The notes under the pieces are model-generated. The model worked only from the letters and a program-made list of their open reading frames with translations, ran no database searches and had not been told where the DNA came from. DNA of 64,000 bases, taken from the NCBI GenBank assembly GCA_964554805.1, contig CAZKPX010000001.1, forward strand, positions 317,798-381,797, written 5' to 3'. Source of the DNA: an uncultured Candidatus Saccharibacteria bacterium. GTDB taxonomy: Bacteria; Patescibacteriota; CAZHWT01. Made by a program: the position numbers and the translations under genes. Of the stretch, positions 9,855 to 49,010 are shown piece after piece. Numbering within the stretch: the stretch's first letter is position 1; the number at the start of each line of letters is the position of its first letter.

Positions 9855-10711
9855 GAAGTGGTGTTTTCCCAGATACTATTGAATAGTTGGCGTAAAGTCT
9901 GAGCGATCTCGGGGTTGGTGATAATGGTAGTCACTACGCCCTGACGGTAGGTGCTGAGGGCAATATTGTCGCCGTAGACCATAATTTGGGCTGGAAAGAG
10001 GTGAGTGCCGAAGTGGCGGACAGCTACATTATTGCTGGCCAGCTGCTCTATTTCTTCTGGACTTAGTCTTTCTGCCTCAGAATAGATGGTTCTGACAGCG
10101 ATGCCTGCGGCGATTTGACGGGCGATTTGTTGGTCAATGGCTGTGGCTGACTGAGGATCATCTCGGTCATGGGCGCTAGGGAATATTAATAGTTCTTCTT
10201 TTTGGCGGATAATGTCATCAAATAGGGTGGTTAGGCCTTGAAGGCCCTCTAGATAGAGGACGCCTGGCTGTTCTTGGGTTAGCCTATAGGTGGATAAAAG
10301 TGACGGCAAGAGGCCTTCCAGGCGGTCAGAGCGGTCTTTGAGAGCCTTTTGTTGGCGGAGAATCATTTGCTTGAGGCTGGATGGGCTTTGGGCGGAGTAG
10401 GTGGTTTTGGCGGTGGAGGTATCTTTGGTGACGAGTTGGAGCTGTTCTAGCTGAGATAGGACCTCGTAGGCGTTGGTGCGGGTGATGTTGATGGCGGTGG
10501 CGAGCTGGGGTGGGGTGGTTTGGGGGGCGGTGAGGAGGTGGAGGTAGGTTTGGGCCTGAGAGGGATTGAGGCCGGCTTGGATTAGTTGGTCCAGGGCGGA
10601 GCTGTGCTCGGTTGTTGAGGATTGAGGGCTGGATGGTTTCGGCATGGGGTTTTGGGTTATGGGTGTCTTGGGGTGTATGGGTATTATAGGGTGTTTAATC
10701 AGTGCTGTCAA
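9851..10711 (-). CDS. TrmB-family transcriptional regulator
   Basis: N-terminal wHTH segment GLNPSQAQTYLHLLTAPQTTPPQLATAINITRTNAYEVLSQLEQLQLV matches the TrmB pattern. Confidence 0.6.
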   Translation of the reverse strand: MTALIKHPIIPIHPKTPITQNPMPKPSSPQSSTTEHSSALDQLIQAGLNPSQAQTYLHLLTAPQTTPPQLATAINITRTNAYEVLSQLEQLQLVTKDTSTAKTTYSAQSPSSLKQMILRQQKALKDRSDRLEGLLPSLLSTYRLTQEQPGVLYLEGLQGLTTLFDDIIRQKEELLIFPSAHDRDDPQSATAIDQQIARQIAAGIAVRTIYSEAERLSPEEIEQLASNNVAVRHFGTHLFPAQIMVYGDNIALSTYRQGVVTTIITNPEIAQTLRQLFNSIWENTTS

Positions 10712-11618
10712 TAGTTTTTTGACAAAATATAAATAGAGTTTATCTGAGATAATAGGCTATTAGTCTATATCTCAGTACCCTAGGCTATTGACATAATGCT
10801 AACTATGGGCTATACTGTGTTCAGTTAAATCGATTAGCTCAGTCAGCTGATTGAGTGATTTAACAAGTACCTTTAAGTTTCTTATAAGCTATTAGTAAGG
10901 ATGAAGTACGTCCGCCAGCTGGCGGATCCCTATATGTTTCATTCTGATTAATAGTAGATATGAATAATGGTGATAACCTGGATCGCTTCGGACGACAGGA
11001 AAGCCTAAATCATTCTACTGAGGCACAGGGTCGCTCTGGCCCGGGGAAACCTGGACCAGGGGATCAGTCTTATCTCCGCCATAATCGACGCGAGACGGCC
11101 TGCTGTATCCATTATTTCCATATCAACTGCTCCACGGCAATACACCCTATCTTTCATCTTCTGATGACGAAAGTATTGCTGGTGGAGAAAGGGGACAGGT
11201 GGTCCAAAAGGAATTACTCAATTCCATATAGATTGCCTGTCCTCAAGCGCAAAATTATTATGGTTGGTAGTTGGCAGTTAGTGGTTGGCGGAGAAAGTCT
11301 CTGCTAACGGATTGCTGAAAACTACTAACGCAATCTGGCAATACCAGATTGTTTCAAGCCTTTGTCTGGTCTGCTTAACCTATCTGAGCTAGACTATCTA
11401 ACCCAATGTTATCCTGAATTTGATTCCGGATATGGGTTGAGATCCTAGTCTAATACTCTGGTTGAGCCGACCAAGCAGATGCTTGTCGGCTCTGTTTGTT
11501 GCCACATGATGGGACGGATGGAGTACACAGCTACGCTGTGTGGTTAGCGGTTGGCAGTTAGCTGTTGGCCGAGAACTGCAGGAAACGAAGAGAGACGTAC
11601 CTTTACAAATCAATAATG

Positions 11619-11713
11619 GCTGCAATATTACCCACCTCTCCGTGGTGCAGCTTCCGCCAGTTGGCGGACCAGCCTTTGGCTGGAGATGAATCCGTATTTA
11701 ACGGTAAACCAAG
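11619..11713 (+). repeat. three-hairpin structured element, b/e family copy 1
   Basis: tccgccagttggcgga hairpin, then ccagcc-ttt-ggctgg, then ccgt-attta-acgg, then taaaccaag; a homolog at 15440-15511 carries compensatory changes. Confidence 0.55.
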
Positions 11714-11737
11714 TGGTAATAGTGGAGACTTTTCGGT

Positions 11738-11844
11738 CCCCTTTAGTGGTTAAAGTGTTTTTGCTGGTCTTACGATTGTTCTCTTCGTCATTGCGAGGAG
11801 CGTAGCGACGCGGCAAGCTGTTTTGTATTAACCATTAAATGGGG
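11738..11844 (+). repeat. R3 structured repeat copy 1 (core tcgtcattgcgagRagcgtagcgacgcggcaa)
   Basis: 14-bp closing helix cccctttagtggttaa / ttaaccattaaatgggg; copies at 14329-14431 and 22101-22205. Confidence 0.6.
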
Positions 11845-11928
11845 CTGAAGGGGGAGAGTCAGAGGTCTGAGACTTGTCTCAGTGCTGATTAGCTCTGCAC
11901 CTGGGTTCGATTCCCGGCAGCTCCACAA
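11841..11928 (+). ncRNA. tmRNA-like tRNA-like domain (88 nt), lacking the mRNA-like body
   Basis: 5' ggggctg pairs with 3' cagctcc, including a G3-U70 pair; T-arm ctggg-ttcgatt-cccgg directly before the acceptor 3' strand; the middle is a simple helix plus hairpin with no tag ORF. Confidence 0.35.
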
Positions 11929-13076
11929 AGTACCCCATCGTCTATGGGGGTGGGCAGGCAGGTGCGTCGCGTCTTGCGATAGCCTCGTTTTGTCCTTCAT
12001 CCTCGAAAGGGATGAAAAAATGACTCAGGCACAGGCACAGGCACAGGCTCAGATTGTAAATCGAGCGTTGTCTTTGGTCGGCCAGGTGCCGACCGACCAT
12101 CCGGCTTCGGCTCGGCGAGCAAGGGCTCGGAGAGCCCCTGCTTGGGGCCGCCAGCAACGTGCTGGCGGAAGTCCGCGCTGCCGACAAGACAGCTAAGGCC
12201 ACCCTAACGGGTGGCAAAAAGAAGCGCAAATAGCGGTTCTGCCCGGTGAGTGACCGGGCGGAAATCAAATAGTCACTTCGAGGTGGACGTCTCGTTAACC
12301 GTATTCTGGTGTGGCCGACCACTGCTGTGCGATTTGCGCAGGAGTTAATTGGCTCCAGACTCATTCTGGAGAATCATATGGGGCTGAACCCCCTGGGAGA
12401 TTGAGGGATCTCCCCAGACAAAAATATCCTTCCTCCAGCTCGGAGCTAGGTGCGCAAGGTGTGCATCTGGAAGAGTTACAATTCTGGCCTACGTCCATTC
12501 CACGGATATGGCCTAGCGAAGGAGGGTCTGTTATGACCTAACTCCGCGGTGGTTGGGGCATGCTTCCCCAACCACCAACAACTTATAGACTGCGAGATAG
12601 ATTACCTCCACGTGGTGCAGTCTGGATAGATAATTCGAATAGATTCCTGTCTACACAGGAATGACGGATTGTTGAACTAAGTATCTAAACAGGAGAGTAT
12701 TCTTCTTCTCAATAGCATAATTCATCGGTCATCAGTGCGCGTTGGTTGTGCTGTTGAGGAGTGGAAACACTTCTCCGGTTACAGCATCTTGCGAGGGTTT
12801 ATATTCCCTCGATCTAGCTCTGCTGAGACTGTTCGTCGTTCTGCTCCAAGCCTATCATGGCTGGGTCAGGGGCGATGCATGGTCGGGCCCTCCGATATGG
12901 GTAGCGGTCTGGTTGGGGACTTTTAGTCCCTGACTAGGCCTCCCGCCTATCTGGGTTGGCTAGTCTGCCCTACAGGGGTATTAGCGGTGCAATGCCGCAG
13001 GCTAAAAATACAGACCAGTGTTCTGACTGCCACTGGGGTTCATTGCAGCCTGCAATGGATTAAACTCTGTAGTCGT

Positions 13077-13269
13077 AAATCCGTACCCTCGAACCGTCAG
13101 GAAGCGGTATTCGCCAATCTGGCGAAGTCCCCGGTTCAGCTCCTCGGACTACGATCCCCCAAAATCGTGTCCGAGGAGAACCCCTCGGCAGCATCCGCCA
13201 ACTGGCGGAGATACGCCTCCTCGTGGCGCTGCTGGATAGTCTATTGAAAGATGGATGAACTGAGTATCT
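13077..13269 (+). repeat. R1 structured repeat copy 1 (about 193 nt)
   Basis: aaatccg..ccgtcagga..cgccaatctggcg..variable hairpin..tccgccaactggcgga..agatac..GAAA-loop hairpin..gtatct; about 85% identical to 14117-14310 with compensatory substitutions. Confidence 0.65.
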
Positions 13270-13335
13270 AGGAGAAGTTTTAGCGTAAAGATTACTTCTG
13301 TCCCAATTAAGATTCAAGGTTGCTTGAGTTTTGGT

Positions 13336-13470
13336 TGGGGGAGGAGTGGTATTAAGACGCTACTTCTTTCGACCCCGTACCGCGTAAGCGGATTGAGTGA
13401 TTCTCAATAGCCTTGGTCGCTTGATTAAGGCTTTCCTGGCGGTGCAGACCGCCGCCGCCCATAGGAGGGC
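13336..13470 (+). promoter_or_regulatory. R2 conserved structured leader upstream of the ORF starting at 13474
   Basis: Shared with 20419-20547: G-run closing stem, ccgc-GNRA-gcgg hairpin (gtaa vs gtga), variable hairpin, ggcggt-gcag-accgcc hairpin just before the GGAGG RBS. Confidence 0.5.
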
Positions 13471-13473
13471 GCA

Positions 13474-13968
13474 ATGGCTATCGTGAAGACAAGCGATGTT
13501 GGTATCCGAGTCAATCAACTCTCTCTAGGGATGTGGAGAGAGTTGGGAATAGAGAAGCCTTCCAGGTTTTCTTTATGGGACTACCTGGAAGGCCTCGACA
13601 GGTCCGTCGAGGCCTTGGGCCTCAGGGGAGTGGCAGTAGCCTCAATGAGGTTCCTGCCAGACGCTGCGGTTGTCATCGTATGGGAGCTACGACTCCCGTA
13701 CGATGAAGCTAGGCGGTTCGAAAGTCTATCTGATGGGCAGAAGGAGCGATTCCTTCTGCCCTTAGACAAACCGCTTGAATTCTCGGAAAAGATTGTGAGC
13801 CTCAACACGGAGAGAAACACCCCTCCATGGGAGAGACTCACAATCTCTGGGACGGATTCGTCTCAGTCGTATCTTAGCAGGCCGACAGATCTCTTGCTTC
13901 AGTCGGAGGCGGAGGCTGCAATTGCAGCTTACCGCAGTCGGCTCGAGGAGCTGGTCTCCTCGCTGTAG
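13474..13968 (+). CDS. hypothetical protein
   Basis: 164-aa ORF; GGAGG RBS 5 nt upstream; preceded by the R2 leader. Confidence 0.5.
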   Translation: MAIVKTSDVGIRVNQLSLGMWRELGIEKPSRFSLWDYLEGLDRSVEALGLRGVAVASMRFLPDAAVVIVWELRLPYDEARRFESLSDGQKERFLLPLDKPLEFSEKIVSLNTERNTPPWERLTISGTDSSQSYLSRPTDLLLQSEAEAAIAAYRSRLEELVSSL

Positions 13969-14116
13969 GTTTTTCTAGCGGTCGCGACCGCTTAGCCCGG
14001 GGTTGACCGGGTGATCTCGAAGCCGTTTGCGTAGAGCGGCATCAACTAGTCTTCTCTACGTCCAGCGCACTGCTGCTGGGGTTAATGACAGCCTGTCATT
14101 GACTAGAAGTGCAGAC

Positions 14117-14310
14117 AAATCCGCAAACCTCTGAACCGTCAGGAGCGGTATTCGCCAATCCGGCGAAGTCCCCGGTTCAACTTCCTCAGGTTGCGACTCC
14201 TTGTCGCACCTGAGGGAGATTCCCTCGGCAGCATCCGCCAACTGGCGGAGATACGCCTCCTCGTGGCGCTGCTGGATAGTCTGTCGAAAGACAGATGAAC
14301 TAAGTATCTA
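14117..14310 (+). repeat. R1 structured repeat copy 2
   Basis: Collinear with 13077-13269. Confidence 0.65.
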
Positions 14311-14328
14311 GCATCAGAGACTTTCTGT

Positions 14329-14431
14329 CTCACTTAGTGGTTAACCTGTTTTTGTTGGTCTTACGATTGTTCTTCTCGTCATTGCGAGAAGCGTAGCGAC
14401 GCGGCAATCTAGTGTTTCGACCATTAAGTGA
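14329..14431 (+). repeat. R3 structured repeat copy 2
   Basis: Closing helix ctcacttagtggtt / gaccattaagtgag; the same core as copy 1. Confidence 0.6.
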
Positions 14432-14568
14432 GGGAGAAATCTCTCTGAAGAAAAGAATCAAAACCCTGGGGAAACTCAGGTCTCTGCCCGTCAGCAGAGG
14501 GAGTGAAGTGTAGTGGCCTGGCAGCGTGCCAAAGCCCGTACCGCTTATGCTCCGCATCCTGTGAAAGG

Positions 14569-15250
14569 GATGAACATGAACTGGCAGTTGATTTTTTCAG
14601 TGGCCTTCGTGGCCACTGTGGCGATCGCTATGATTGCCTTCGCCGGCCGAGAAATCGGCGAGGTGAAGGCGGGCGCCGCCGCCGCGGCGCGAAAGGCCGC
14701 GGCTACGGCCGCGGAGGCTACCGCCCAGAAATGGGCGGTGAAGTACCGCAACCTGGAGGTCCTTCGGGACCTCCAGGCTCTCTTCGGAAGCACCCCTGTG
14801 ACGATCTTTGGATCGTCACAGAAGGGGGGCGGTTTCACCGCCCCCGAACGACCGTCCGACCTCGACCTGATGGTCGAGGTTGACGACGAGACCTGGGCGG
14901 AGTGGGCCGCCCAGGTCTACCCGGCAGATCTCGTCGGGGCGGAAGCCCCCCCAGTTTACAACGACAACTGGGGCGGTGGCGAGACCGCTCTGGTTAGGGG
15001 GAGGACAATCACCGTTCTCCCTTACGAGACGGTCTACCCGACGCGCATTGCGCGCCGGGAGGCCGCCCAGGAGATCCTAGGCATCGAGATTGAGCCCCTC
15101 GGGCTCAATCTCGACATCTTCCTCTTCCCGCACTCGTTTGTGCGGGAAGAGATGACCATCCCGGCTTGGGATGGTGCGGAGACCGGAAGGTCTTTCCGGG
15201 AGGAGGTCCTGGCAGGAGTCAAGCTCTCTGAGCTTCAGCCTGCGGACTAA
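14569..15250 (+). CDS. nucleotidyltransferase (Pol-beta/MNT superfamily) with an N-terminal TM helix
   Basis: Motif IFGSSQKGGGFTAPERPSDLDLMVEVDD (GS-x9-SDxDL); N-terminal hydrophobic helix WQLIFSVAFVATVAIAMIAF; Ala-rich linker. Confidence 0.6.
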
Positions 15251-15439
15251 TGACCCTCAGCGCACTGCTGCGCTGGCTGACGACGCATTCGTTGGCGAAA
15301 TGAAGCAGATAGACCTTACCTCGGATCCTTCGCGACTGAGATGGTCGAACCCCGGGGAGCGTAAGCTCTCTGGGGAAACCCATGGCAGCAATTGATTCGC
15401 CTCTACGATGGCTCGCCTAGCCGAAATGCTAGTGCAGGC

Positions 15440-15511
15440 TGGCGCTGCTTCCGCCGGTTGGCGGACTGGTCTTTTGACCAGAGATGAATCCGTCTTGAAC
15501 GGTAAACCAAG
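15440..15511 (+). repeat. three-hairpin structured element, b/e family copy 2
   Basis: tccgccggttggcgga, then ctggtc-tttt-gaccag, then ccgt-cttga-acgg, then taaaccaag. Confidence 0.55.
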
Positions 15512-15661
15512 AATCAAAAATAAACGACATTGATGTCTCCAGGCTACTTGCTGGGGAACAATCAGGGGGCTTTTAACGTTGACCCCTGGTTGTTCCTTGG
15601 GCAGGGAACTAAAGCCAGCCGCGGGTGCGGTAGGCTGAACAATTGCCCTAGAGGAGGCCCT

Positions 15662-16012
15662 ATGGCCACCAAATTCATCAATCTAACCCCTCATACGATC
15701 AATGTTGTTGTTGTTGGGGAGGAGGGTGACGTTGTCGCCTCCTTCCCGGCTTCGGGACAGGAGGCTCGGGTGGCAACCACCCGGGAGCTGTCTCATAACC
15801 TCGACGCCGATGGTGTCGGGATCCCGGTCTTCAGGACCGGGTACGGGGAGATCGAGGGGCTGCCGGCCCCCGAGGCCGGCACTATCTTCGTCGTCTCTGG
15901 TCTGGTGGCTGCGGCCACCGACCGTGATGACGTCGTCTCTCCGGGCGAACTCGTCCGGAACTCCGAGGGGCAGCCGATTGGCTGCCGGGGGTTCTCCCGC
16001 CCCGCTCGATAG
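15662..16012 (+). CDS. hypothetical protein
   Basis: 117 aa from ATG 15662 with a gaggagg RBS; the longer ORF is open from 15530. Confidence 0.45.
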   Translation: MATKFINLTPHTINVVVVGEEGDVVASFPASGQEARVATTRELSHNLDADGVGIPVFRTGYGEIEGLPAPEAGTIFVVSGLVAAATDRDDVVSPGELVRNSEGQPIGCRGFSRPAR

Positions 16013-16209
16013 GGAGAGTTCGGTGGGTGTCCGAACTAAAATAACCACCCCAATTCCAGCCAGTGTGTCTGTGGCTGGGGGTTGGCTGTTGCTTGCAGCT
16101 GACGAAACAAATCTTCGGACATAGGGACCTAACCTGCTGCGGAAGCCTTTGGGTGACTAAGGCAATATCGGTTCCGGCTCCTGGGATGGTGAGATTACTC
16201 ATCGTTCTA

Positions 16210-16303
16210 GGAGACCTTCGTGGCAGCATCCGCCAACTGGCGGAGATACGCCTCCTCGTGGCGCTGCTGGATAGTCTGTTGAAAGATGGATGAACTAAGT
16301 ATC
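16210..16303 (+). repeat. R1 repeat, 3' half only
   Basis: ggcagcatccgccaactggcggagatacgcctcctcgtggcgctgctggatagtctgttgaaagatggatgaactaagtatc. Confidence 0.6.
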
Positions 16304-16658
16304 AGAAGGAAGAGTTTATTTTTGTTCTTAGCCCGTTGCTCTTAGGTGCCTAGTTGACCCTATTGGAAGATAGGGCCAATGGGTTGATTATTTAGCTGAG
16401 AGCAGCGTGGTGGGAATGAAAGAGTTGACGGCTTCTCGGGTGAGGAGCTTTTGGTGTATCTGGGGAGTGAGCAGGTATGCCGGGAGCTCCTCATTGAGGA
16501 GCGCAACCTAGGTGAATTGCAGTAAAAACTCTTTTGGGCAACCCTGCCCGATGCCGTAGGTGCTCTGGATGAAATTGAGCGCTGAATGGAAGTCAGTTAA
16601 AGACTGGCCGAGCAGGGTGGGTATTGTCGCGAGACGCCCCTGGCTCGAAGGAGTTGCT

Positions 16659-19600
16659 GTGAGCAACAATATTCTTCTTCCAATCTCCGCTTATCGGGCG
16701 GAGATTGAAGCAGGGGTGGATGGCGATTCGGTGGTGGTTGTCACCGCTGAAACGGGGACTGGGAAAAGCACGCAAGTGCCGCAGTACATGTTGGAGGCTG
16801 GGTATGATCTGGTAATCACCCAGCCGCGTCGGCTGGCCGCCCGAACAGTGGCCCAGCGAGTGGCCGAGGAAATCGGTCAGGAATTGGGCGGAATTGTTGG
16901 TTATCGGACGGCGGAGGATCGGCGAGATTCGTCGGACACCCGCTGTTTATTCGTGACCGATGGTCTTCAGCTTGTTCGCGAGCTGATGGGTCATGGGAAG
17001 CGGCAAGTTTTGATTCTGGACGAGGTCCATGAATGGAACGAGAACCTGGAAGTTCTCGTTGCCTGGGCCAAGCTCCAGATCGAAACTGGAGCTGATTTCA
17101 AGCTAGTGCTGATGAGCGCTACGCTTGAAGCCGACAAGTTGGCCGCCTATTTTGGTGGTGCGCCAGTTATCTCGGTTCCAGGCCGACTGTTTCCGGTGAC
17201 GGAGCAGAAGCCAGGAGGTTCGGTGGAAGCCGACGTTGCGGAGCTGGTTCGCCAGAGGCGCAATACACTGGTATTCCAGCCGGGCAAGGCGGAGATTGAG
17301 GCCACCTGTGCTGCTTTGCGGCAGATGCAAGTGTGGGCTGAGATTTTGCCTTTGCATGGGCAGTTGACCGCCGAGGAGCAGGCTCGCTGCTTCCGGCATT
17401 ACGGTAAACCCAAGGTGGTGGTGGCATCAAATGTGGCGCAGACCAGCGTCACAATTGACGATATCGACGCCGTTGTCGACTCCGGCATGGAGCGACGGAT
17501 TGAGTTGGTGGATGGGGTTGAGGGCTTGTACCTTAAGCCTATTTCGCTGGCTGATTCTGCGCAGCGCCGGGGTCGAGCTGGTCGGACGAAGGCAGGGATC
17601 TATATCGATCGCTGCCCGAGTGTCGACCGACCGGAGTTTCCGGTGGCCGAGATCCTGCGCAAGCGGCTCGACCAGACGGTACTCCGGTTGGCCAGTGCTG
17701 GGTTTGACATGGAAGAGCTGGAATTCTTCCATCAGCCTGACAAGGCTGACATCCACGAGGCTCGTCAGTCTCTAGTGGCTCTCGGCTGCATGACAGCGGC
17801 TGGAGAAGTCACATCGATGGGGAGACGGGTTAACAAGCTGCCGGTGTCAGTGCAGTATGCGCGGATGCTGGTGGAAGCTGAGCGGTTGGGGGTGGTGGAC
17901 GATCTCCTGACTGTGGCAGCTATCTTGGAGCAGGGCGGTATTACAGTTGCCCCCCCAAGTCGGTCTAATCTGACCCGACCTGATTGGCGCCGAATGGTGC
18001 CGCAGGAGCAGGAGTCGGATATTCTTGGTCAGCTGGTTGTCTATAAAATGGCAGCTGAGATGACCAATGACCAACTCTATCAGAGTGGGGTGGCTCTGAA
18101 GGCCTATTATCGGGCTAAGGAGATCCGCTCTCATTTGGCGAGGGCTCTGGGCGCTCGGTTCCATTCTGGTTCAACGGGTCGCCGCGAGGACATCCTCAAA
18201 GCGGTCTGTGCCGGGATGGTTGACCATCTCTACCATGGCACTGGTGGGGGATGGAAGAATGGTGACGATACTGTCCGAGAACTGGGCAGTTCGTCGCTGG
18301 TTCAGAATGCCAGTTGGTTGGTGGGTCGGCCTTTTGACCTGCAGATCAAGGCACGCTATGGGCATACCACCCTGCGCCTGATCGAGCTGGCGTCAAAGGT
18401 TGAGCCGAACTGGCTGGTCGAAGTCGCTCCGCATTTGGTGGAGCAACAGACTGGCCTGCAACCTCGCTTTGATGACCGGAAGGGGGTGGTGGTTTCGACC
18501 ACCAAGACTCTCTTTAATGGTCAAGAAGTGGGGGAAGAGGAGGTTGTGGATCGGGAGCACCCCGAAGCAGCCGATCTCTTTGCTGGCTGGCTGGCTGGGC
18601 TGAGTCAATCTCGGGCGGAGAGTCTGGGGTTGGAAATTATGGTTCGCAATCTGGCTCGCAACCAACGAGCTAAGGAGCTGAACCAGCGGGCCGGCGAGAC
18701 CCTCTTTGGGGTGGTTGAGCTGCAGGCTTGGTATCTTGCCAAGCTGGAGGGCGCTGGCAACTTTAAGGAGGTGGTGGAGAAGCAGGTGGCTGCGAAGTGC
18801 CTGCTGCCCGATCTCGACCAGGATTTGATTGATCTGGTGCTCCAAGAGCAGCCAGACTCGATTGAGTTGCTGGGCGAAGGCCTGAAAGTAGAGTATGTTG
18901 ATGGCTACGGTCATCGGCGTACTCACCCTAGAGTTCGGTTGTCGGATCAGCAGATTCAGGCGAAGGCCTGGCTTGAGCTGTCTGATGACCAGCCGGTTCG
19001 CCTGTCTGGCGGGCGAATGGTTGAAGTGGCGGTTGAAGTGGCTTATACTACTTTCTCCTCTACTGAGCCATTCCTGCTGAAGGAGCGGGTGCGCGAGTAC
19101 CTGAACCAGAAGCAGTGGGACGCCTGGCATCGACCAGAGGTCTCAGTTGAGGGGCTGGAGTCGGCAGATCAGATTCCGTTTATGACCGCTGTCTATGGAC
19201 AGTGCGTGGTGACGGGGCAGGATCTGCTGGCTTACGGTACCGTTCGGGCACGCCGGTATTGGTCCAGGATTGATCGCTGGCAGCCGGTGTGGGTTCGGTC
19301 TCTTGATGAGGCTGAACGGGTTCGATCCGAGGCAGTGGCAGCACTTGAAGAGGTGCGAGCTGAAGCTGAGGTGAAGGCTATGGAGTCCAGATTGAAGATT
19401 CTGGATGCCCATAACGGCTGGTTCTACCTTGATCGCTCGTCGGAGGCTTATAAGCGCCTTCAGGGCATAATGGTAGAAGTCCCGCCCGCTAGTCGGGAAT
19501 GGTTGATAGAGGCGGGGCGACTGGTTGAAGAGCTGGCTCCTGCCCTTGAGCAGGCCGAGCAAGATGGCTTGGCTGCTGAACAGGCAGCTAAGGCTGAGCA

Positions 19601-20090
19601 ACAGCAGATCGAAGAGAAGGCGGCTGGAATATTGGCTGCGGTCAATCCCAGTGGTCATCACAACTTTGGTTTGGCTGAGGTTCGGTTGGCGAGCCAGTTG
19701 GCCGAACAAGCGGTTCGGCTGGTGGGACAAGCCCGGGCTCAGGCGATCTTCCGAGAGGAAGCGGATGCTTCTTATCGAAGATCGCTCAAATGTCAGCGAA
19801 TCAGAGAGGCTATTCCTGGTTTGTTTGACACGGAAGTTGGGTCGCGGTTCCTCCAGATTCCGGCGCGGTATGTCACCGAATGGTGGTTGCAAGCGACGGC
19901 ATTGTGGTTGGAATCGAATACCACCACGTCGACCGAGGAGTTGCCTGCTCCTGCTCCTGCTCTGATTGAGCTGGAAGAGCAGCCGACGGTGTCAGTTTTG
20001 GCTGTCAAAGAACAGTCTGCCGAGGAGGCAGAAGAGTCTTTTGACAGTCCTATGGCGCTAGCAATGCGTCGGGCCGGGATTAAGTTTTAA
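16659..20090 (+). CDS. DEAH-box (HrpA/HrpB-like) ATP-dependent helicase with a roughly 450-aa C-terminal extension
   Basis: Walker A TGTGKSTQVPQ, DEVHE box, helicase-C and HA2-like region QRRGRAGR; GTG start at 16659 with an aaggag RBS matches the HrpB N-terminus (LPI..); the ORF is open from 16560. Confidence 0.85.
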   Translation: MSNNILLPISAYRAEIEAGVDGDSVVVVTAETGTGKSTQVPQYMLEAGYDLVITQPRRLAARTVAQRVAEEIGQELGGIVGYRTAEDRRDSSDTRCLFVTDGLQLVRELMGHGKRQVLILDEVHEWNENLEVLVAWAKLQIETGADFKLVLMSATLEADKLAAYFGGAPVISVPGRLFPVTEQKPGGSVEADVAELVRQRRNTLVFQPGKAEIEATCAALRQMQVWAEILPLHGQLTAEEQARCFRHYGKPKVVVASNVAQTSVTIDDIDAVVDSGMERRIELVDGVEGLYLKPISLADSAQRRGRAGRTKAGIYIDRCPSVDRPEFPVAEILRKRLDQTVLRLASAGFDMEELEFFHQPDKADIHEARQSLVALGCMTAAGEVTSMGRRVNKLPVSVQYARMLVEAERLGVVDDLLTVAAILEQGGITVAPPSRSNLTRPDWRRMVPQEQESDILGQLVVYKMAAEMTNDQLYQSGVALKAYYRAKEIRSHLARALGARFHSGSTGRREDILKAVCAGMVDHLYHGTGGGWKNGDDTVRELGSSSLVQNASWLVGRPFDLQIKARYGHTTLRLIELASKVEPNWLVEVAPHLVEQQTGLQPRFDDRKGVVVSTTKTLFNGQEVGEEEVVDREHPEAADLFAGWLAGLSQSRAESLGLEIMVRNLARNQRAKELNQRAGETLFGVVELQAWYLAKLEGAGNFKEVVEKQVAAKCLLPDLDQDLIDLVLQEQPDSIELLGEGLKVEYVDGYGHRRTHPRVRLSDQQIQAKAWLELSDDQPVRLSGGRMVEVAVEVAYTTFSSTEPFLLKERVREYLNQKQWDAWHRPEVSVEGLESADQIPFMTAVYGQCVVTGQDLLAYGTVRARRYWSRIDRWQPVWVRSLDEAERVRSEAVAALEEVRAEAEVKAMESRLKILDAHNGWFYLDRSSEAYKRLQGIMVEVPPASREWLIEAGRLVEELAPALEQAEQDGLAAEQAAKAEQQQIEEKAAGILAAVNPSGHHNFGLAEVRLASQLAEQAVRLVGQARAQAIFREEADASYRRSLKCQRIREAIPGLFDTEVGSRFLQIPARYVTEWWLQATALWLESNTTTSTEELPAPAPALIELEEQPTVSVLAVKEQSAEEAEESFDSPMALAMRRAGIKF

Positions 20091-20418
20091 TCTTTGTCGT
20101 GAGGCGGAGGCCTCGTATCAATACTCCAGCGGCTTGTGTTGACCGCTGACTGCCTACAGCGTGTAGGTAGTAAATTCTCAACACATCGGGCCTGTCCGTT
20201 ATTGACGGAGAACGACCCATTGGGTAGGGGGCTAAAACCCCTACCTACTTTACGGCTGCATATACATGCCTCTTCGTGGCGTAGCTAGAAATTCGTTTAT
20301 GTGACGAAGCTAAATGTATGAGAAGTGGAAGAAAGCTTACTTCTGTCTCAATCAGAGCTTGAGACTTTAGGCGTAGATTCCGGATCTAGTCCGGAATGAC
20401 GGCCTTTTGAGCTTTGTT

Positions 20419-20547
20419 TGGGGGGAGAAGTGCTATTAAGACGCTACTTCTTTCGTCCCCGTACCGCGTGAGCGGATTCAGCATCTCAATCCCCGGCCAC
20501 TTGGCTGGGGTTGTTGGCGGTGCAGACCGCCCACGCCTTTGGAGGGC
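20419..20547 (+). promoter_or_regulatory. R2 conserved structured leader copy 2
   Basis: Homolog of 13336-13470, directly upstream of the ORF starting at 20551. Confidence 0.5.
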
Positions 20548-20550
20548 AAA

Positions 20551-20994
20551 ATGATCATCTGCCCCACCATTTACTATTGTCATCCCGGGCAGGAGATACT
20601 TCTGCCTGTGGGGGCGGTCCGTCTGCAAGGGCAGGCGGATGGTTGGTGGGTGGGGGAAGATATCCCTCATCTGCCGTTTGGCCAGAGAAGGGTGAAGGGA
20701 GGGGTCTTCATTGTAGAGGAGGACCTCTCCGATCCCTCGTTCTATGTGGAGGTTGTTATCCTCCACAATGTGAATGAGGGCCTGCCTGGGGCCATCCCCG
20801 CGCTGTTGATTGGGATTGGGGAAGCAGCGCCCCTTGCTGTCCCCAGTAAGAGTGCCTATCGCACTCTGACCGCCGAGGCTACATGTCCTCACTGCGGTTG
20901 TGGTCGCGATTTTAGGCAAAGCTGGGTGGCGGTCGAAGGCTGTTATTTCTGCGATACAGCCATTCGTTCCCCGTTCAGTATGAGCCCAAGCTAG
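20551..20994 (+). CDS. hypothetical protein with a C-terminal Cys4 zinc-ribbon
   Basis: CPHCGCG..x16..CYFCD; GGAGG RBS; the overlapping minus-strand ORF 20386-20919 was rejected. Confidence 0.45.
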   Translation: MIICPTIYYCHPGQEILLPVGAVRLQGQADGWWVGEDIPHLPFGQRRVKGGVFIVEEDLSDPSFYVEVVILHNVNEGLPGAIPALLIGIGEAAPLAVPSKSAYRTLTAEATCPHCGCGRDFRQSWVAVEGCYFCDTAIRSPFSMSPS

Positions 20995-21300
20995 ACTGAA
21001 CCCCGGAGAGCTGGAGGCTCTCTGGGGAACCCAATGGCAGTATCCCCAACTGGCGGAGATACGCCTCCACGTGGCGCTGCTGGAATAGTGCTTATTGTCA
21101 GGCTGAACTAAATTCTGCAGAATAAATCTGCGAATAAATCCAAACAGGATGACATTGAGTATTAACTGAGTATCTGAGGGAGAGTTTTTTCTGTCCGCTT
21201 TAGTTTTTTGATTATGAAAATTGATGCTATGGGTACGTTGTTGCTCGGTGTCGATGGTGAGTTAAAAGATTGAAGCGGGGAGATGAATGATGGAGGCTGG

Positions 21301-21478
21301 GTTATGGCAGTGTGCTGTGGCGGCTTCTGTCGGGTATATTTGACATAAGCTGGGCTTGTGACTAGGAACCCGTTTCTGAAATTTGTCTGTGGCCTTGAGG
21401 AAGATAGGGCTGAGGGGTTATAGTGCGGTTGATGTTTTTTAACGGTTAGCCGCTATTTCGGAGACGGGTTTTTGGTAA
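21301..21478 (+). repeat. R4 direct repeat, left copy (about 178 nt)
   Basis: About 93% identical to 22267-22440. Confidence 0.7.
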
Positions 21479-21597
21479 GTAGGGGGGATTGCCGGTCCGC
21501 TTGAGGCTTTTGGGTAATGAAGCTTGAAGTGGGGTGGTATGTGAGGGCAGGGAAAGATTCTCTGCTTGGGACCTCCCAATTAGAAAGGAGGGGTGCA

Positions 21598-21789
21598 ATG
21601 CACCCAGTCTTTTTCTTGCTAGCAATAGCGGCCACGCTGGCCGCTATTGGAGCAGTCGCTTGGCTGCTCTTCGGCTTCCATCAGGACACTCGGAAGGCGC
21701 TCGAGGTCTCCGTTGAGACCCGGGTTGCCATTGCGGCGATCCTGATCGGCACGGCCGCGATTGGCTGGTGCCTGGCGGTATCGGTTTAG
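21598..21789 (+). CDS. small two-TM membrane protein (63 aa)
   Basis: MHPVFFLLAIAATLAAIGAVAWLLFG..AIAAILIGTAAIGWCLAV; followed by a perfect hairpin cgaggaaggagg..ccttccttcctcg. Confidence 0.35.
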   Translation: MHPVFFLLAIAATLAAIGAVAWLLFGFHQDTRKALEVSVETRVAIAAILIGTAAIGWCLAVSV

Positions 21790-22007
21790 CGTGGTGGTCG
21801 AGAAAACCCGCGAGGAAGGAGGTTATTACCTTCCTTCCTCGGGGGAATACATTTTATATTGGAGAAGGAGTTGGTTTTGTAAGTGAGAAGAAAGAAGAGA
21901 GATCTTGTGGAGCAACAGGCGACAAGCGACCCCGATAGATCGGGGCAGGCTCGGCGACGAGACCTGGATTTGCGAAGCAAGCAACAGTGAACCTTAATAA
22001 TCAAATA

Positions 22008-22085
22008 ATGGCTGCAATATTACCCATCTCTCCGTGGTGCAGTCTGGATAGTCTGTTGAAAGACGGATGAACTGAGTATCTGACA
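22008..22085 (+). repeat. R1-variant repeat (ggctgcaatattaccca..ccgtggtgcag..ctggatagtctgttgaaagacggatgaactgagtatct)
   Basis: Shares its 5' module with 11619-11650 and its 3' module with R1. Confidence 0.55.
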
Positions 22086-22100
22086 TCAGAGACTTTCTGT

Positions 22101-22205
22101 CTCGCTTAGTGGTTGAGCTAGTTGACGCTTGTTTATGATTGTTCTTCTTGTCATTGCGAGAAGCGTAGCGACGCGGCAATCTAGTCTATTTGACCACTGA
22201 GTGAG
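22101..22205 (+). repeat. R3 structured repeat copy 3
   Basis: Closing helix ctcgcttagtggtt / gaccactgagtgag, with G-U and A-U substitutions relative to copy 2. Confidence 0.6.
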
Positions 22206-22266
22206 GGAGAAATCTCTCTGAAGATCGGATGGCCTGTCAGTCAAGGCGGGTAGGAAGAGTGGTTGG

Positions 22267-22440
22267 GGCAGCAGTGTGCTGTGGCGGCTTCTGTCGGGTA
22301 TATTTGACATAAGCTGGGCTTGTGACTAGGAACCTGTTTCTGAAATTTGTCTGTGGCCTTGAGGAAGATAGGGCCGAAGGGCTATAGTGAGATTAACTTG
22401 TTGTTAGTCACTATTTCGGAGACGGGTTTTTGGTTGGAAT
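22267..22440 (+). repeat. R4 direct repeat, right copy
   Basis: See 21301-21478. Confidence 0.7.
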
Positions 22441-22528
22441 AGCACGGCACGGCTTTTGAAGTGAATAGTGGGTGCTTGGTTGTTGCGTTATGGTATAATA
22501 TGCTGTCACAATTGCTTGTTGCCTGGGA

Positions 22529-23050
22529 GTGCTGGGCGGTGGTTGTGATAAAGGAGAGTGTTCGGTGGTTCAGCAAGAAACTAGCCCCGTAGAGTTGGGT
22601 AAGTATGAAATTTCACCCGAGGACTTTGAAGCGCTTCGGGCGCTATTACCTGCCCCGGTGGAGACGACGGTTGTTGAGTTTCTTCGTCATCACAATATTG
22701 TCAAGTCATTCGAAGCCCACGGTATTGTCTTGTTGCCATCCAGAGCTCGCAGCGGTCCAAAAGTCTCCTTGAACGAGGATGTTGGCCTTGAGGATTTACT
22801 GACAGGTCAGTGCGTCTTATTGGGAGCGTATTTGTCGGGATGGGGCGGCCCACTACTTTGTTCGTACGCATGGCATTGGGCTGTGGCAAGAAATGGCAAC
22901 GAGACGCTTCCATTTCTGAAGGAGCAGGATGGTCCAAAATATGACCAGTGGACTGGCTACGGCGCTTTTGATCAGTTGCTGGGCTTAATGCCGAGCTGGT
23001 TGAAGCTTGACTCGGACTGGCGAATTGAGGATGGTTGGATTCGCCGATAA
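22529..23050 (+). CDS. hypothetical protein
   Basis: 173-aa ORF. Confidence 0.4.
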   Translation: MLGGGCDKGECSVVQQETSPVELGKYEISPEDFEALRALLPAPVETTVVEFLRHHNIVKSFEAHGIVLLPSRARSGPKVSLNEDVGLEDLLTGQCVLLGAYLSGWGGPLLCSYAWHWAVARNGNETLPFLKEQDGPKYDQWTGYGAFDQLLGLMPSWLKLDSDWRIEDGWIRR

Positions 23051-23156
23051 CGGAGATAGACAGTGGGGTGGAGGGAAATTCTCTCCACCCTGTTGCATTT
23101 TGCTAACAATACATCTTGTTTTTGATAGTTATTATGAGTAAGCTTGGCTATAAGAG

Positions 23157-23507
23157 TTGAGCATAAAGGTTGATTTAAAAGGCAAGGAGCAGAGGATGTC
23201 ACTGGTCGCACCGGAAGTCATGACGTGTACGCCGCATCATTCGACTGAGATGGCGATCATGAAACTTTGCCCAAAGGGCGAGGAGATTGAATCGGTGTCG
23301 GCTGTTTTGAGTTGGTTCTGGTTGGGAGCTTATGTTAATGAGCGTGGGCGGGTAGTGCTGGAATGGCTGCCGTGCCTCAAGGTGGGGTGGGAGAGTTTTC
23401 TGCCGAACCAGAAGGCTGAGCTGTTTGAGCGAGTTGGATTGGCGATTCTGGAGATGGAGCTGCCACAACAATGGGTTATTGTTGACGGACGGCTTCGCAG
23501 ACGGTGA
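23157..23507 (+). CDS. hypothetical protein
   Basis: 116-aa ORF. Confidence 0.35.
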   Translation: MSIKVDLKGKEQRMSLVAPEVMTCTPHHSTEMAIMKLCPKGEEIESVSAVLSWFWLGAYVNERGRVVLEWLPCLKVGWESFLPNQKAELFERVGLAILEMELPQQWVIVDGRLRRR

Positions 23508-23778
23508 GCCAATCAGGAGTTTTAATTGGAATAGAGAGATATTAGCGCCTCCTGGGTAGGAACCAGGGGGCTTTTTATGGGCAGGTTATGGGACTGTTGT
23601 TGGGATTTATTGTTCATAATGAGGCACTCCTATTTATTTTTATATAAGGATATAGTTTATTATTTGAGTATATATATTTATATAGTGGTTGTATTTGAAA
23701 ACAGAGCATTATCTTGCTATACTCTGTGCCTAAACGTGTCTGTCGCAAAACAGGGCAACAAGTTTGAAGGAGTGAGGG

Positions 23779-24354
23779 ATGTGGTTAAAAGATTCAGACG
23801 CGCTGACCGGCAGTCTGAGAAAATGGGTGAGAGGGGTGACTCCTGAACCGGCTCATTTCAGTGTTCAAATGGCGCTCGATGCAGCCAGGGAACTTGGCTT
23901 ATGGATTGAGCGCGATGGAGACAACCGCCGCATTGTGCTTAAAAACTACAGCATCGGCATGATAACTCCGAGCATTGAACTGGTGAATCGAGATCGTGTT
24001 CAGGAGAAGCTGCAGCAGCCGGCGCAGTTTGAGGCTACTATGTATTCATGGGGTTACCTAGACCCTGGTGGCGTTCTGATTGAACCTATACCCGCCATCT
24101 ATAATCTCGGAGGCACGGTTTCCTTCGAAATTCAAGTTCATGGCATTCATTGTGATCCTCATAAAGCGGGCTCTTTGGGTGGGTCATGGACAAGAGGTAG
24201 GGAGGAAATTGGCTTGCTGATTGGCGCATGGTTGAACCCATTCATTCATCAAGTAGTGCTACCTGAGCCGGTGGTGATTGATTGGAAAGAAAAGGTGAGC
24301 GGTAGAAACCTGATGAGTGACGCAGAGCGGATCTGCTTCGCCTCGGAGCGTTAA
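23779..24354 (+). CDS. hypothetical protein
   Basis: 191-aa ORF, preceded by an AT-rich low-complexity tract at 23600-23720. Confidence 0.45.
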   Translation: MWLKDSDALTGSLRKWVRGVTPEPAHFSVQMALDAARELGLWIERDGDNRRIVLKNYSIGMITPSIELVNRDRVQEKLQQPAQFEATMYSWGYLDPGGVLIEPIPAIYNLGGTVSFEIQVHGIHCDPHKAGSLGGSWTRGREEIGLLIGAWLNPFIHQVVLPEPVVIDWKEKVSGRNLMSDAERICFASER

Positions 24355-24637
24355 ACTGATTCTCGCTAAGGATTTAGGTTCTTTGAGAGATGAGACGAGT
24401 GGTCCGGGTTATCGTGGAGGCGATACCCGGACTTTTTCTGTTGTCGGCACTTTGTTGGTATTAAATGTTGCAACAAGTTTTATTATGCCCTTAGGATGTA
24501 TGCTTGAAATTGAGGGGGAGAGCTGATAGAATAAGCCGTGTTCCGGCTATGTAGTGAACAGAGAAAAGAAGACGTGAGAAGTTTTTACAATCCTATATTC
24601 CTCGGTAGCTCTCCGCCAGCTGGCGGAGGCAGAGTAT

Positions 24638-25180
24638 TTGAAAATGGTTGTCTATGCTATTTACAATCAGAAGCATGATAAGATTTATATCGGTCAGACC
24701 GAAGATCTTGATTTGCGTCTCGACCTGCACAATAGTAAAGACTTCATTAAAAGCTACACTGCACGATTTGATGGCGTATGGAAGTTAATTTACCAAGAAG
24801 CAGTTGGTAATCGAGTAGAAGCTCTAACTCGCGAAAAGCAGCTTAAATCTTATCGCGGCAGACAATTCATAAAATCTTATATTCCTCGGTATCCGCCAGC
24901 TGGCGGGAGGAAGCTGCCACTCATAACAATGTGGTATGTCTACTGCCTATATAATTATGATAATGATAAGATTTATATTGGTTATACGGGCGATTTTGAC
25001 AGGCGCATTATTGAACACAATCTCAAGAAAGATAAAAGTTCGTATACTGCAAGGTTCGACGGTGAGTGGGTTTTGATTTATAAGGAAGAAGTCTCCAACA
25101 AATCAGAAGCTGCAAAACGTGAAAAGTCTTTAAAGTCGTTCAGGGGGCGTGAGTATTTACAATCTTATATTCCTCGGTAG
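24638..25180 (+). CDS. tandem double GIY-YIG nuclease (two YhbQ/UPF0213-like modules fused in one ORF)
   Basis: Module 1 VYAIYNQKHDKIYIGQTEDLDLRLDLHNS..SYTARFDGVWKLIY; module 2 VYCLYNYDNDKIYIGYTGDFDRRIIEHN..SYTARFDGEWVLIY; each ends ..SYIPR encoded by aatcttatattcctcggta; the stop codon overlaps the tRNA-Asn 5' end. Confidence 0.7.
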   Translation: MKMVVYAIYNQKHDKIYIGQTEDLDLRLDLHNSKDFIKSYTARFDGVWKLIYQEAVGNRVEALTREKQLKSYRGRQFIKSYIPRYPPAGGRKLPLITMWYVYCLYNYDNDKIYIGYTGDFDRRIIEHNLKKDKSSYTARFDGEWVLIYKEEVSNKSEAAKREKSLKSFRGREYLQSYIPR

Positions 25181-34093: not shown

Positions 34094-34225
34094 CCTGCTT
34101 AGCTGGCGAGTCTAGTGTAGAGAGATTCGGGAGGTAGTTCAATACAAGCGACGGGCGACGGGCGACGAGCGACGAGCCAGCTCGCACAAAGACACTAGAC
34201 AGAAGACAGAAGGCAGGGGACACGA

Positions 34226-35237: not shown

Positions 35238-35678
35238 ATGGAAGAATATACTTTGAATTATAAGGATGGAAGCCTGTGGGTTAAAGGATGGATGGAGAAC
35301 GGGCTGCAGCAAGGATATTGGGAATGGTTTCGCAAAGATGGGGTGAGGTTGCGATCGGGTCATTTTGAAAATGGTAAGGCGGTGGGTGAGTGGACTGCCT
35401 ATGATAAGCACGGTGAGGTATATACGGTTACGACTGCGCGTGACTTTGAGCGACGGGCGACGAGCGACAGGCGACAGGGGGAGGGGGATTTGCCGAAGGG
35501 TATTGGTGGGCCAGCTACGGCAGTCTTGAAGCTTGAAGGTTTGGTTTGGTTGAAAGACATTGCTCAGAAAACAGACAAGGAGTTGCTGAGCTTGCATGGA
35601 GTTGGGCCTAGGGCAGTGCGGATATTGAGGGAAACTATCCTGGGCAGTGCCGAGAAGGATCTTGAGACGCGGATATAG
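35238..35678 (+). CDS. MORN/YwqK-like repeat protein with a C-terminal helix-hairpin-helix
   Basis: GxWxxYxxxGxL-type repeats (GYWEWFRKDG, GEWTAYDKHG); C-terminus LHGVGPRAVRIL; contains an in-frame GCGACRAG-repeat insert. Confidence 0.45.
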   Translation: MEEYTLNYKDGSLWVKGWMENGLQQGYWEWFRKDGVRLRSGHFENGKAVGEWTAYDKHGEVYTVTTARDFERRATSDRRQGEGDLPKGIGGPATAVLKLEGLVWLKDIAQKTDKELLSLHGVGPRAVRILRETILGSAEKDLETRI

Positions 35679-48904: not shown

Positions 48905-49010
48905 TATCTGCTACCTAACTTATGCTCCAGTTGGTTAGAGCGGACTGGTCCGCTTATTATCTCTATTTCGGCTCCGCCTCCGCCGGTTGGCGGAGCAGCT
49001 GAGCTACGTT
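48905..49010 (-). other. tRNA-derived fragments interrupted by a ccgccggttggcgg hairpin
   Basis: The minus strand reads cgtagctcagctg and then ctccgccaaccggcggag; a 13-nt identity (cagctgagctacg) with the adjacent tRNA-Ile. Confidence 0.4.

Follow-up and report, generated by a model that had tools for sequence, protein, structure and literature searches.

The window analysed here is a 64,000-nucleotide (nt) stretch of the genome of an uncultured Candidatus Saccharibacteria bacterium (contig CAZKPX010000001.1, positions 317,798 to 381,797), and within it a structured RNA leader occurs twice, at 13337-13473 (copy A) and 20421-20550 (copy B) in the numbering of the window. Both copies lie on the (+) strand and each runs up to the start codon of an open reading frame (ORF), copy A to that of a 164-amino acid (aa) ORF (13474-13968, +) and copy B to that of a 147-aa ORF (20551-20994, +) with C-terminal Cys pairs. 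The two products show no relationship to one another (BLASTP E = 3.3), no protein homologues were found for either and they have no common function; codon-position composition is gene-like in both of these orphan ORFs, whose starts are the ones called in public data. The leaders belong to an island of ~12.3 kb (~10.8-23.1 kb) in which all plausible genes are on the (+) strand and the GC content is 0.53-0.59, as against 0.44-0.50 in the flanks, which are ordinary chromosome (DnaG, RpoD, FtsH, PolA). The island is a mosaic of dispersed repeats that are 87-95% identical (families D3, D4, D6, D7 and D18), and it also encodes a DEAH/HrpA-like helicase (16560-20090, +) that is conserved in relatives.

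The two leaders are paralogues, aligning over 144 columns with a mean column identity of 86%. Their conservation is uneven, the 61-nt 5' core (repeat family D15) being 92% identical and the fifth hairpin (GGCGGTGCAGACCGCC) identical at 16/16 positions, with about half of the positions conserved in between. The similarity ends exactly at the ATG, which in both copies follows a Shine-Dalgarno (SD) sequence, GGAGG (13464-13468 in copy A and 20541-20545 in copy B), at 5-6 nt and the end of hairpin 5 at 20 nt (A) or 19 nt (B). Each of the three conserved leader blocks has exactly two occurrences in the window, both on the (+) strand, the chance expectation being 0 for two of the blocks. A covariance model, R1, built from the two copies and run over the island (10500-23800) with filters off, scored the copies themselves at 169 and 161 bits, and the next best hit, at 13 bits, was the antisense of copy B.

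The RNAalifold consensus of the pair comprises six helices with 33 base pairs, all of which are paired in both copies. The G-run/C-run outer stem and the hairpin with the AUUAAGAC loop together make up hairpin 1 (13337-13376 in copy A, with outer GGGG/CCCC pairing and an inner stem 13341-48/13361-68; 20421-20460 in copy B, with a C-C mismatch at the position given as an ambiguous S in a preliminary description of this DNA). They are followed by a GNRA hairpin 2 (CCGC-GUAA-GCGG at 13380-13391 and CCGC-GUGA-GCGG at 20464-20475), by hairpin 3, which in copy A lies at 13392-13408, by a variable hairpin 4 (13411-13430 in copy A; CCCCGGCC-ACUU-GGCUGGGG at 20491-20510 in copy B), by hairpin 5, GGCGGU-GCAG-ACCGCC (13438-13453 and 20516-20531), and by a helix between a C-tract and the SD (13457-13470 in copy A). 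The pairing of hairpin 4 is maintained across three double changes, each from U-A to C-G, and one change from G-U to G-C. Fold z-scores are -4.1 and -4.2 on the (+) strand and -1.8 and -3.0 on the (-) strand. A shuffle control on the leader consensus (65/500) is without power, given that it contains two sequences only. Hairpins 1 and 4 contain G-U pairs, which show that any structure under selection is one of (+) strand RNA and not of DNA. The preliminary description, made from the letters alone, had claimed homologous leaders with these hairpins, preserved pairing in the variable one and dissimilar downstream proteins, and had taken the leader for a sense-strand structured RNA in the 5' untranslated region (UTR) of two unrelated ORFs, all of which is borne out. 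It had also suggested a covariance-model search for more copies and for a fixed distance to start codons, with random orientation and distance as the mark of a dispersed repeat. Within the window, with further copies possible in the rest of the host genome, which could not be searched, the search returned the same two copies, in the same orientation and each abutting its ATG at a fixed distance, a pattern that is not that of a dispersed repeat, a repetitive extragenic palindromic (REP) element or a miniature inverted-repeat transposable element (MITE).

Two other explanations for the conservation of the 5' core could be weighed against this structural evidence. The first takes the core as conserved DNA, TTGAGY...TG-N-TATTAA being an extended -10 promoter, and is prompted by the presence in both copies of TGGTATTAA or TGCTATTAA with TTGAGT or TTGAGC 20-21 nt upstream. 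We regard it as very unlikely, since the promoter scan lists no promoter-like site in 13260-13480 or 20320-20560, TATTAA lacks the position-6 T of the clear promoters of the host, the distance to the -35-like hexamer is too long, and the G-U-containing helices and the compensatory changes further downstream would be left unexplained. The second is that a leader peptide, V(V/L)LRRYFFRPRTA, encoded by a 13-codon ORF (GUG at 13346 to UAA at 13385-87 in copy A and the equivalent GUG to UGA in copy B), regulates the downstream gene. Three of the five differences in the 61-nt core do correspond to V/L, to the synonymous CGA/CGU and to UAA/UGA, but the SD-like GGAGGA abuts the GUG at a spacing of ~0-1 nt, the UAA/UGA difference is equally one between GUAA and GUGA, both of them GNRA loops, a terminator or anti-terminator is lacking, and a test would need more than five substitutions; a leader peptide thus seems exceedingly improbable.

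How the leader presents the SD differs from what had been proposed for it. The preliminary description held that the hairpin adjacent to the ribosome-binding site could sequester it; hairpin 5, however, ends 10 nt (A) or 9 nt (B) upstream of the SD and leaves it unmasked, and what stands of the proposal is that a separate helix of 4-5 bp, formed by the C-tract after hairpin 5 with the GGG of the SD, is predicted to mask the 3' half of the SD in both copies with the AUG open. This pairing and the open AUG are predicted to be unchanged with or without upstream sequence. The predicted masking thus looks weak, and constitutive rather than switch-like.

The leader is lineage-specific, known from one genome only, and outside all described riboswitch classes. 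Rfam 15 gave nothing over either leader, be it at gathering scores or at E <= 10. For comparison we used a set of 85 related loci (0.9 Mb), in which a relative of the neighbouring helicase is encoded, and R1, run on five and then on the other 80 of these, found generic GC hairpins only, at no more than 19 bits. No match resulted from blastn of all island non-coding DNA against the related loci and phage and plasmid records. The exact pattern ATTAAGACN{8,12}TTTCGNCCCCGTA had no occurrence in viral contigs, where diverged copies would escape such a search, and one chance match, within unrelated sequence, in a collection of genome contigs that does not contain the window's own genome. The exact pattern CCCCGTACCGCGNNAGCGGATT, which diverged copies would likewise escape, occurred neither in metagenome contigs nor in viral contigs.

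These results bear on the possibility that the leader is a responsive riboregulator, which would bind a small molecule or a regulatory protein, alter access to the SD and so co-regulate both ORFs. Invariance of sequence in hairpin 1, with its AUUAAGAC loop, and in hairpin 5, combined with conservation of structure only in hairpin 4, is typical of recognition elements; moreover, the C-tract that pairs with the 3' half of the SD could instead pair with the 5' arm of hairpin 5, and the G-run of hairpin 1 has an alternative partner upstream, at 13294-13306. Such alternative pairings of the leader are without obvious conservation. The architecture is that of a row of separate hairpins, with no multi-helix junction to form a pocket, and the promoter and terminator scan found no terminator or anti-terminator in the leader regions. 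The SD mask is short and predicted to be equal across contexts, the downstream genes are unrelated orphans with no shared pathway, and with two copies in one genome, no Rfam family at the threshold above and none of the 85 loci or scanned collections carrying a copy, there is no cross-genome conservation of an aptamer. A riboregulator therefore appears quite unlikely, and of the suggestion that the element is a cis-regulatory RNA or riboswitch-like, what survives is the structured leader at a start codon and not the riboswitch, for want of a family match, a junction, a terminator and a common gene function. An RNA thermometer, type III antitoxin repeats, a retron non-coding RNA and a tRNA-like element were also considered as identities for the leader and had no supporting features. 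As an identity for the leader, a module for mRNA processing and translation is more likely than a riboswitch.

The leader is the 3' part of a paralogous unit of ~290 nt (unit A, 13187-13473; unit B, 20254-20550), in which the order of elements is an HDV-like (hepatitis delta virus-like) ribozyme candidate, a post-ribozyme hairpin, a relic of a ribozyme 3' half, the five-hairpin leader, the SD and the ATG. The candidate at the head of unit A, rz3 (13187-13269, +), is of repeat family D3 and was recognised by motif and core alignment. Its P1 (13187-92/13228-33) begins with the pair G13187-U13233, a hairpin is inserted in J1/2, P2 is formed by 13209-14/13264-69, P3 is GCC/GGC around an L3 of UCCUCGU, and cleavage is predicted 5' of G13187. 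The candidate at the head of unit B, rz7 (20254-20319, +), is compact, without the J1/2 insert (P1 20254-59/20281-86; P2 20262-67/20314-19; L3 UCUUCGU; J4/2 GCUAA), with cleavage predicted 5' of G20254. The post-ribozyme hairpins are GAGAAGU...ACUUCUGUCC in unit A (13271-13304, +) and GAGAAGUGG..CUUACUUCUGUCUC in unit B (20320-20349, +), the latter resembling leader hairpin 1. A 6-bp pairing between the G-run of the leader and L3 of the ribozyme is possible in unit A; being absent in unit B, it was rejected.

Both candidates are members of an array. The L3/P3 motif C[CT]TC[CT]NCG[AT]{1,2}GG has eight occurrences in the window, all of them on the (+) strand and located between 11635 and 21064, with a ninth, chimeric copy at 22010. 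Besides rz3 and rz7, the array includes, all on the (+) strand, rz1 (11618-11721; motif and partial match to RF02682), with a P2 of UAUUACC/GGUAAUA and a large P4 region; rz2 (12588-12686; motif and core alignment), in which the first P1 pair is G-C and not G-U; rz4 (14227-14299; motif and core alignment) and rz6 (16222-16304), both of D3 type; and rz8 (21036-21175), which is D3-like with a long P4 and lies 41 nt past the stop of the 147-aa ORF. Seven candidates look intact, and two look defective and may be inactive, namely the atypical rz5 (15384-15517), with an insertion of ~30 nt that separates P3 from the 3' strand of P1, and rz9 (22010-22081), a chimera of an rz1-like 5' half and a D3-like 3' half with a non-complementary P2. 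The Rfam model HDV-F-prausnitzii (RF02682) matches rz7 (20255-20321) with 35.1 bits and an E-value of 0.0016, and it misses the D3 type with the J1/2 insert. On an alignment of the nine candidates trimmed by hand and eye to P1, P2, P3, L3 and J4/2, 95.6% of cells are paired and double changes occur at 9/15 pairs, which none of 500 shuffles reached and which compares with 24-53% in slid controls; on this hand-trimmed alignment, the candidates form the nested P1-P2-P3 double pseudoknot with covariation. P2, the long-range pseudoknot helix, takes four different sequences, each still complementary, the first P1 pair is G-U, as is typical at the cleavage site of such ribozymes, in seven of the nine and G-C in the other two, L3 is C-rich with the consensus UCYNCGU, and J4/2 has the expected C, reading as GCUAA, GAACURA or ACCAAG. 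Upstream of most candidates there is a hairpin whose end falls at the predicted cleavage site (as at 13171-13188 and 20223-20245). Thus, the elements upstream of both leaders are probably HDV-like self-cleaving ribozymes, to judge by their sequence; the preliminary description had missed both these candidates and the likely ribozyme-derived origin of hairpin 1 and the spacer.

Other structured modules accompany the ribozyme candidates. Conserved segments lie just upstream of ribozymes at 13080-13186 and 14118-14226 (+), with GAACCGUCAGGARCGGUAUUCGCCAAUCYGGCGAAGUCCCCGGUUCA, and at 15343-15383 and 20995-21035 (+), with GAACCCCGGRGAGC...CUCUCUGGGGAA, and these may be 3'-end elements of the preceding RNAs. 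A palindrome, CCGCCAGCTGGCGG, recurs in the window at 10911-10926, 24600-24630, 24885-24914 and 48970-48994, and a near-copy of it, CCGCCAACTGGCGG, is found inside the J1/2 or P4 position of several ribozymes. Family D4, a structured module of ~120 nt (11731-11819, 14322-14410 and 22094-22182, +) with a UUAGUGGUUAA...ACCAUUAAGUGAGGGAGA closing stem and an inner CUUCUCG-UCAUUG-CGAGAAG hairpin, is found after three of the ribozymes and makes up a second kind of leader that is reused. Downstream of rz1 and a D4 module there is a tRNA-like mini element (11841-11928, +) with a tmRNA-type (transfer-messenger RNA-type) acceptor and T-arm, GGGGCUG...GGUUCGAUUCC...CAGCUCCA, and a G3-U pair, which scores 42.8 bits with the Rfam tmRNA model (gathering score 47; E 1.9e-14) and is not called by ARAGORN; it could be another processing signal.

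The origin of the leader could be traced in part within this array. A post-ribozyme hairpin with a purine-rich, GAGAAGU-like 5' arm and a pyrimidine-rich, ACUUCUGUCYC-like 3' arm is present after every island candidate, and leader hairpin 1 (GAGRAGUG...CUACUUCUUUCG) aligns with these hairpins, R1 itself weakly matching that of unit B (20321-20344) at model positions 10-35. Directly before leader B lies a relic of an rz2-type ribozyme 3' half (20371-20419, +; P4, J4/2 and P2'), which aligns with 12618-12716 and is without the P1/P3/L3 core, and unit A has a shortened relic spacer at ~13308-13336. Because the spacer aligns with rz2 and hairpin 1 resembles a post-ribozyme hairpin, the 5' part of the leader seems to have arisen by duplication of the 3' half of a ribozyme together with its post-ribozyme hairpin, the catalytic core having been lost. 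Nothing in the rest of the island corresponds to hairpins 2 to 5.

This derivation also speaks for a neutral explanation, in which duplication, recombination and gene conversion of ribozyme-hairpin modules produced the leader as a by-product, functionless beyond the supply of an SD. The mosaic of 87-95% identical repeats, the chimeric nature of rz9 between two ribozyme types, the ribozyme-associated sequence from which the 5' part seems to derive and the failure to find a leader copy outside this genome, in related loci, phage and plasmid records and sequence collections, are all as such a process would have it. The conservation of the leader is, however, patchy and not uniform, the similarity stops exactly at the start codon, and the three double substitutions that kept the pairing of hairpin 4 need selection on RNA structure. 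We consider it rather unlikely that neutral processes account for the leader.

The island has a single strong promoter and a single strong terminator, both predicted. Its best (+) promoter-like site in the promoter scan, TTGACA-17-TATACT (10788-10816, +), matches at 11/12 positions and is divergent from the perfect promoter of a TrmB-family gene, and the strongest intrinsic-terminator-like site, a 16-bp stem followed by a T run (23061-23095, +), is the putative end of the island transcript. Between these two the scan found no comparable promoter-like site and no strong terminator. Family D7 (21307-21480 and 22271-22440, +; 95% identical, ~125-170 nt), upstream of ORFs at 21598 and ~22565, carries a weak promoter-like site, TTGAGG-18-TATAGT.

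In the related loci, several of whose helicases are annotated as patescibacterial, conservation is limited to the helicase and the TrmB-family gene and extends neither to the small ORFs nor to any non-coding module. These loci have self-cleaving ribozymes of another class. Of 30 matches to the core motif of type III hammerheads, 27 are on the helicase strand, the loci with such hammerheads being L005, L012, L015, L017, L021, L022, L030, L031, L033, L036 and L055 (in L055 at 6817-6871, 12118-12172, 14822-14876 and 17118-17172). Rfam matches to hammerhead families number eight in five related loci, all on the (+) strand with E-values of 1e-8 to 1e-4, and one of them exceeds the gathering score. 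At least six loci have a hammerhead at a distance of 30-320 nt before the start of the helicase gene, and rz6 takes the equivalent position in the window, ~255-355 nt upstream of the helicase start. Because relatives carry hammerheads on the helicase strand and the window carries HDV-like candidates, self-cleavage in the sense strand would thus be a conserved property of such islands, with the ribozyme class interchangeable. Other observations at the related loci are a weak Cas_csx3 match near the helicase of L006, and LOOT RNA (RF03000) above the gathering score at L017 4666-4785 (-) and L031 4957-5086 (-), a few kb from the helicase.

Based on these observations we tentatively favour, with a confidence that falls just short of even, the hypothesis of a ribozyme-processed operon in which the leader, specific to this lineage and derived from ribozymes, serves as a 5'-UTR module. 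A single long RNA would be transcribed across the island from the promoter near 10.8 kb, and each ribozyme would cleave at its own 5' end and remain on the downstream fragment, so that the leader becomes the structured 5' UTR of a separate mRNA. The independent hairpins plausibly space the ribozyme from the ORF in such a way that neither misfolds the other, perhaps stabilise the 5' region and may present the SD with its 3' half weakly masked, and a common site for a trans-acting factor or protein that co-regulates both ORFs may be provided by the invariant hairpins 1 and 5.

Several observations weigh against this hypothesis. Four of the five hairpins are invariant and thus provide no covariation information, which is confined to hairpin 4, and the other ORFs of the island are without such a leader. 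The 92% identity of the leader 5' core is within the range of the other island repeats (87-95%), and recent gene conversion, instead of selection, could be its source. On the side of the ribozymes, no candidate reaches the RF02682 gathering score (rz7 has 35.1 bits against 44), the trimming of the core alignment favours structure, and a naive test of P2, which compared the longest helix with shuffled sequences, was not discriminating.

A more far-reaching version is that the island is a single-promoter operon of ~12 kb cut by about nine sense-strand HDV-like ribozymes, and possibly by the tRNA-like element too, in which the leaders are portable 'cleave here, translate here' cassettes placed before unrelated orphan genes, with relatives using hammerheads likewise at equivalent positions. 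This we regard as possible, if doubtful; were it true, it would imply selection for self-cleavage as such, and perhaps remodelling of these RNAs by the helicase. No convincing ORF is found on the (+) strand in 12690-13186, between rz2 and rz3, or in 11930-12587, between the tRNA-like element and rz2, and if the ribozymes cut, these stretches would be freed as non-coding RNAs of ~500-650 nt.

Among the remaining genes of the island, a 116-aa ORF (15662-16012, +) matches the PADLOC model Unk_01, 'small protein sometimes fused to CARF', with an E-value of 1.5e-22, and a 226-aa ORF (14570-15250) has a GS...SDLDL motif that is nucleotidyltransferase-like by eye, with no significant family match. 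GC skew is strongly positive on the (+) strand throughout the window (0.2-0.5 in most 2-kb bins), almost all genes being on that strand, and between 12 and 22 kb, in the island, the skew is weaker and GC is 6-12 points higher. Elsewhere in the window, a 990-aa ORF (44781-47753, +) has long 12-nt and 24-nt tandem repeats at 45816-46659, which encode a repeat region rich in Thr, Glu and Pro, and has a Cornifin-like Pfam match, and heptamer repeats of the CGACGAG/CGACAAG type occur at 3186-3281, 34132-34194, 35444-35489, 55128-55190 and 57078-57123.

The leader shares with riboswitches and other cis-regulatory leaders a structured sense-strand 5' UTR that is common to different genes and partially pairs with the SD, and differs from them in family membership, cross-species conservation, a junction pocket, a clear expression platform and coherent gene function, all of which it lacks. 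Synthetic insulators of the RiboJ type place a ribozyme, a hammerhead from satellite tobacco ringspot virus (sTRSV), and a hairpin upstream of the ribosome-binding site, and thereby decouple the translation initiation region of the ORF from upstream sequence. The order of ribozyme candidate, hairpin and ribosome-binding site is the same here, in a natural and HDV-like arrangement with a much longer structured spacer. If cleavage and the function of the leader hold true, the ribozymes and leaders would turn a long transcript into separately expressed mRNAs and would constitute natural insulator parts.

By itself the leader, of which one genome has two copies, is only modestly interesting, and the ribozyme array with its reused leader modules is more notable. 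Why bacteria place self-cleaving ribozymes beside particular genes is an open question (PMC6765202), for which this locus offers a compact case, with many ribozyme candidates on one strand, reused leaders that end at start codons, and relatives with another ribozyme class at the same places. We found no paper that describes this arrangement or that links HDV-like or hammerhead ribozymes to Patescibacteria/CPR (Candidate Phyla Radiation). The RNAs of the retrotransposons R2 and L1Tc have HDV-like ribozymes at their 5' end, and these have been proposed to aid translation initiation (PMC6765202). As in those RNAs, the ribozyme is predicted here to cut at its own 5' end and to stay on the RNA upstream of the ORF; the present locus differs in being bacterial, with a normal SD, no reverse transcriptase and a separate leader of 135 nt between ribozyme and ORF.

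It has been remarked that ribozymes of different classes occur in the same, unexplained gene neighbourhoods in bacteria, and a part in the processing of polycistronic transcripts is suspected for bacterial ribozymes (PMC6765202). An interchangeable ribozyme class at conserved sense-strand sites, as suggested by the comparison of this island with its relatives, fits both remarks. The gene clusters that contain hammerhead or twister ribozymes in bacteria likewise have several sense-strand ribozymes between the genes of an operon-like cluster. The island described here differs from these in that the ribozyme candidates are HDV-like, that there are about nine of them in 11 kb, and that each is followed by reused structured modules such as the leader.

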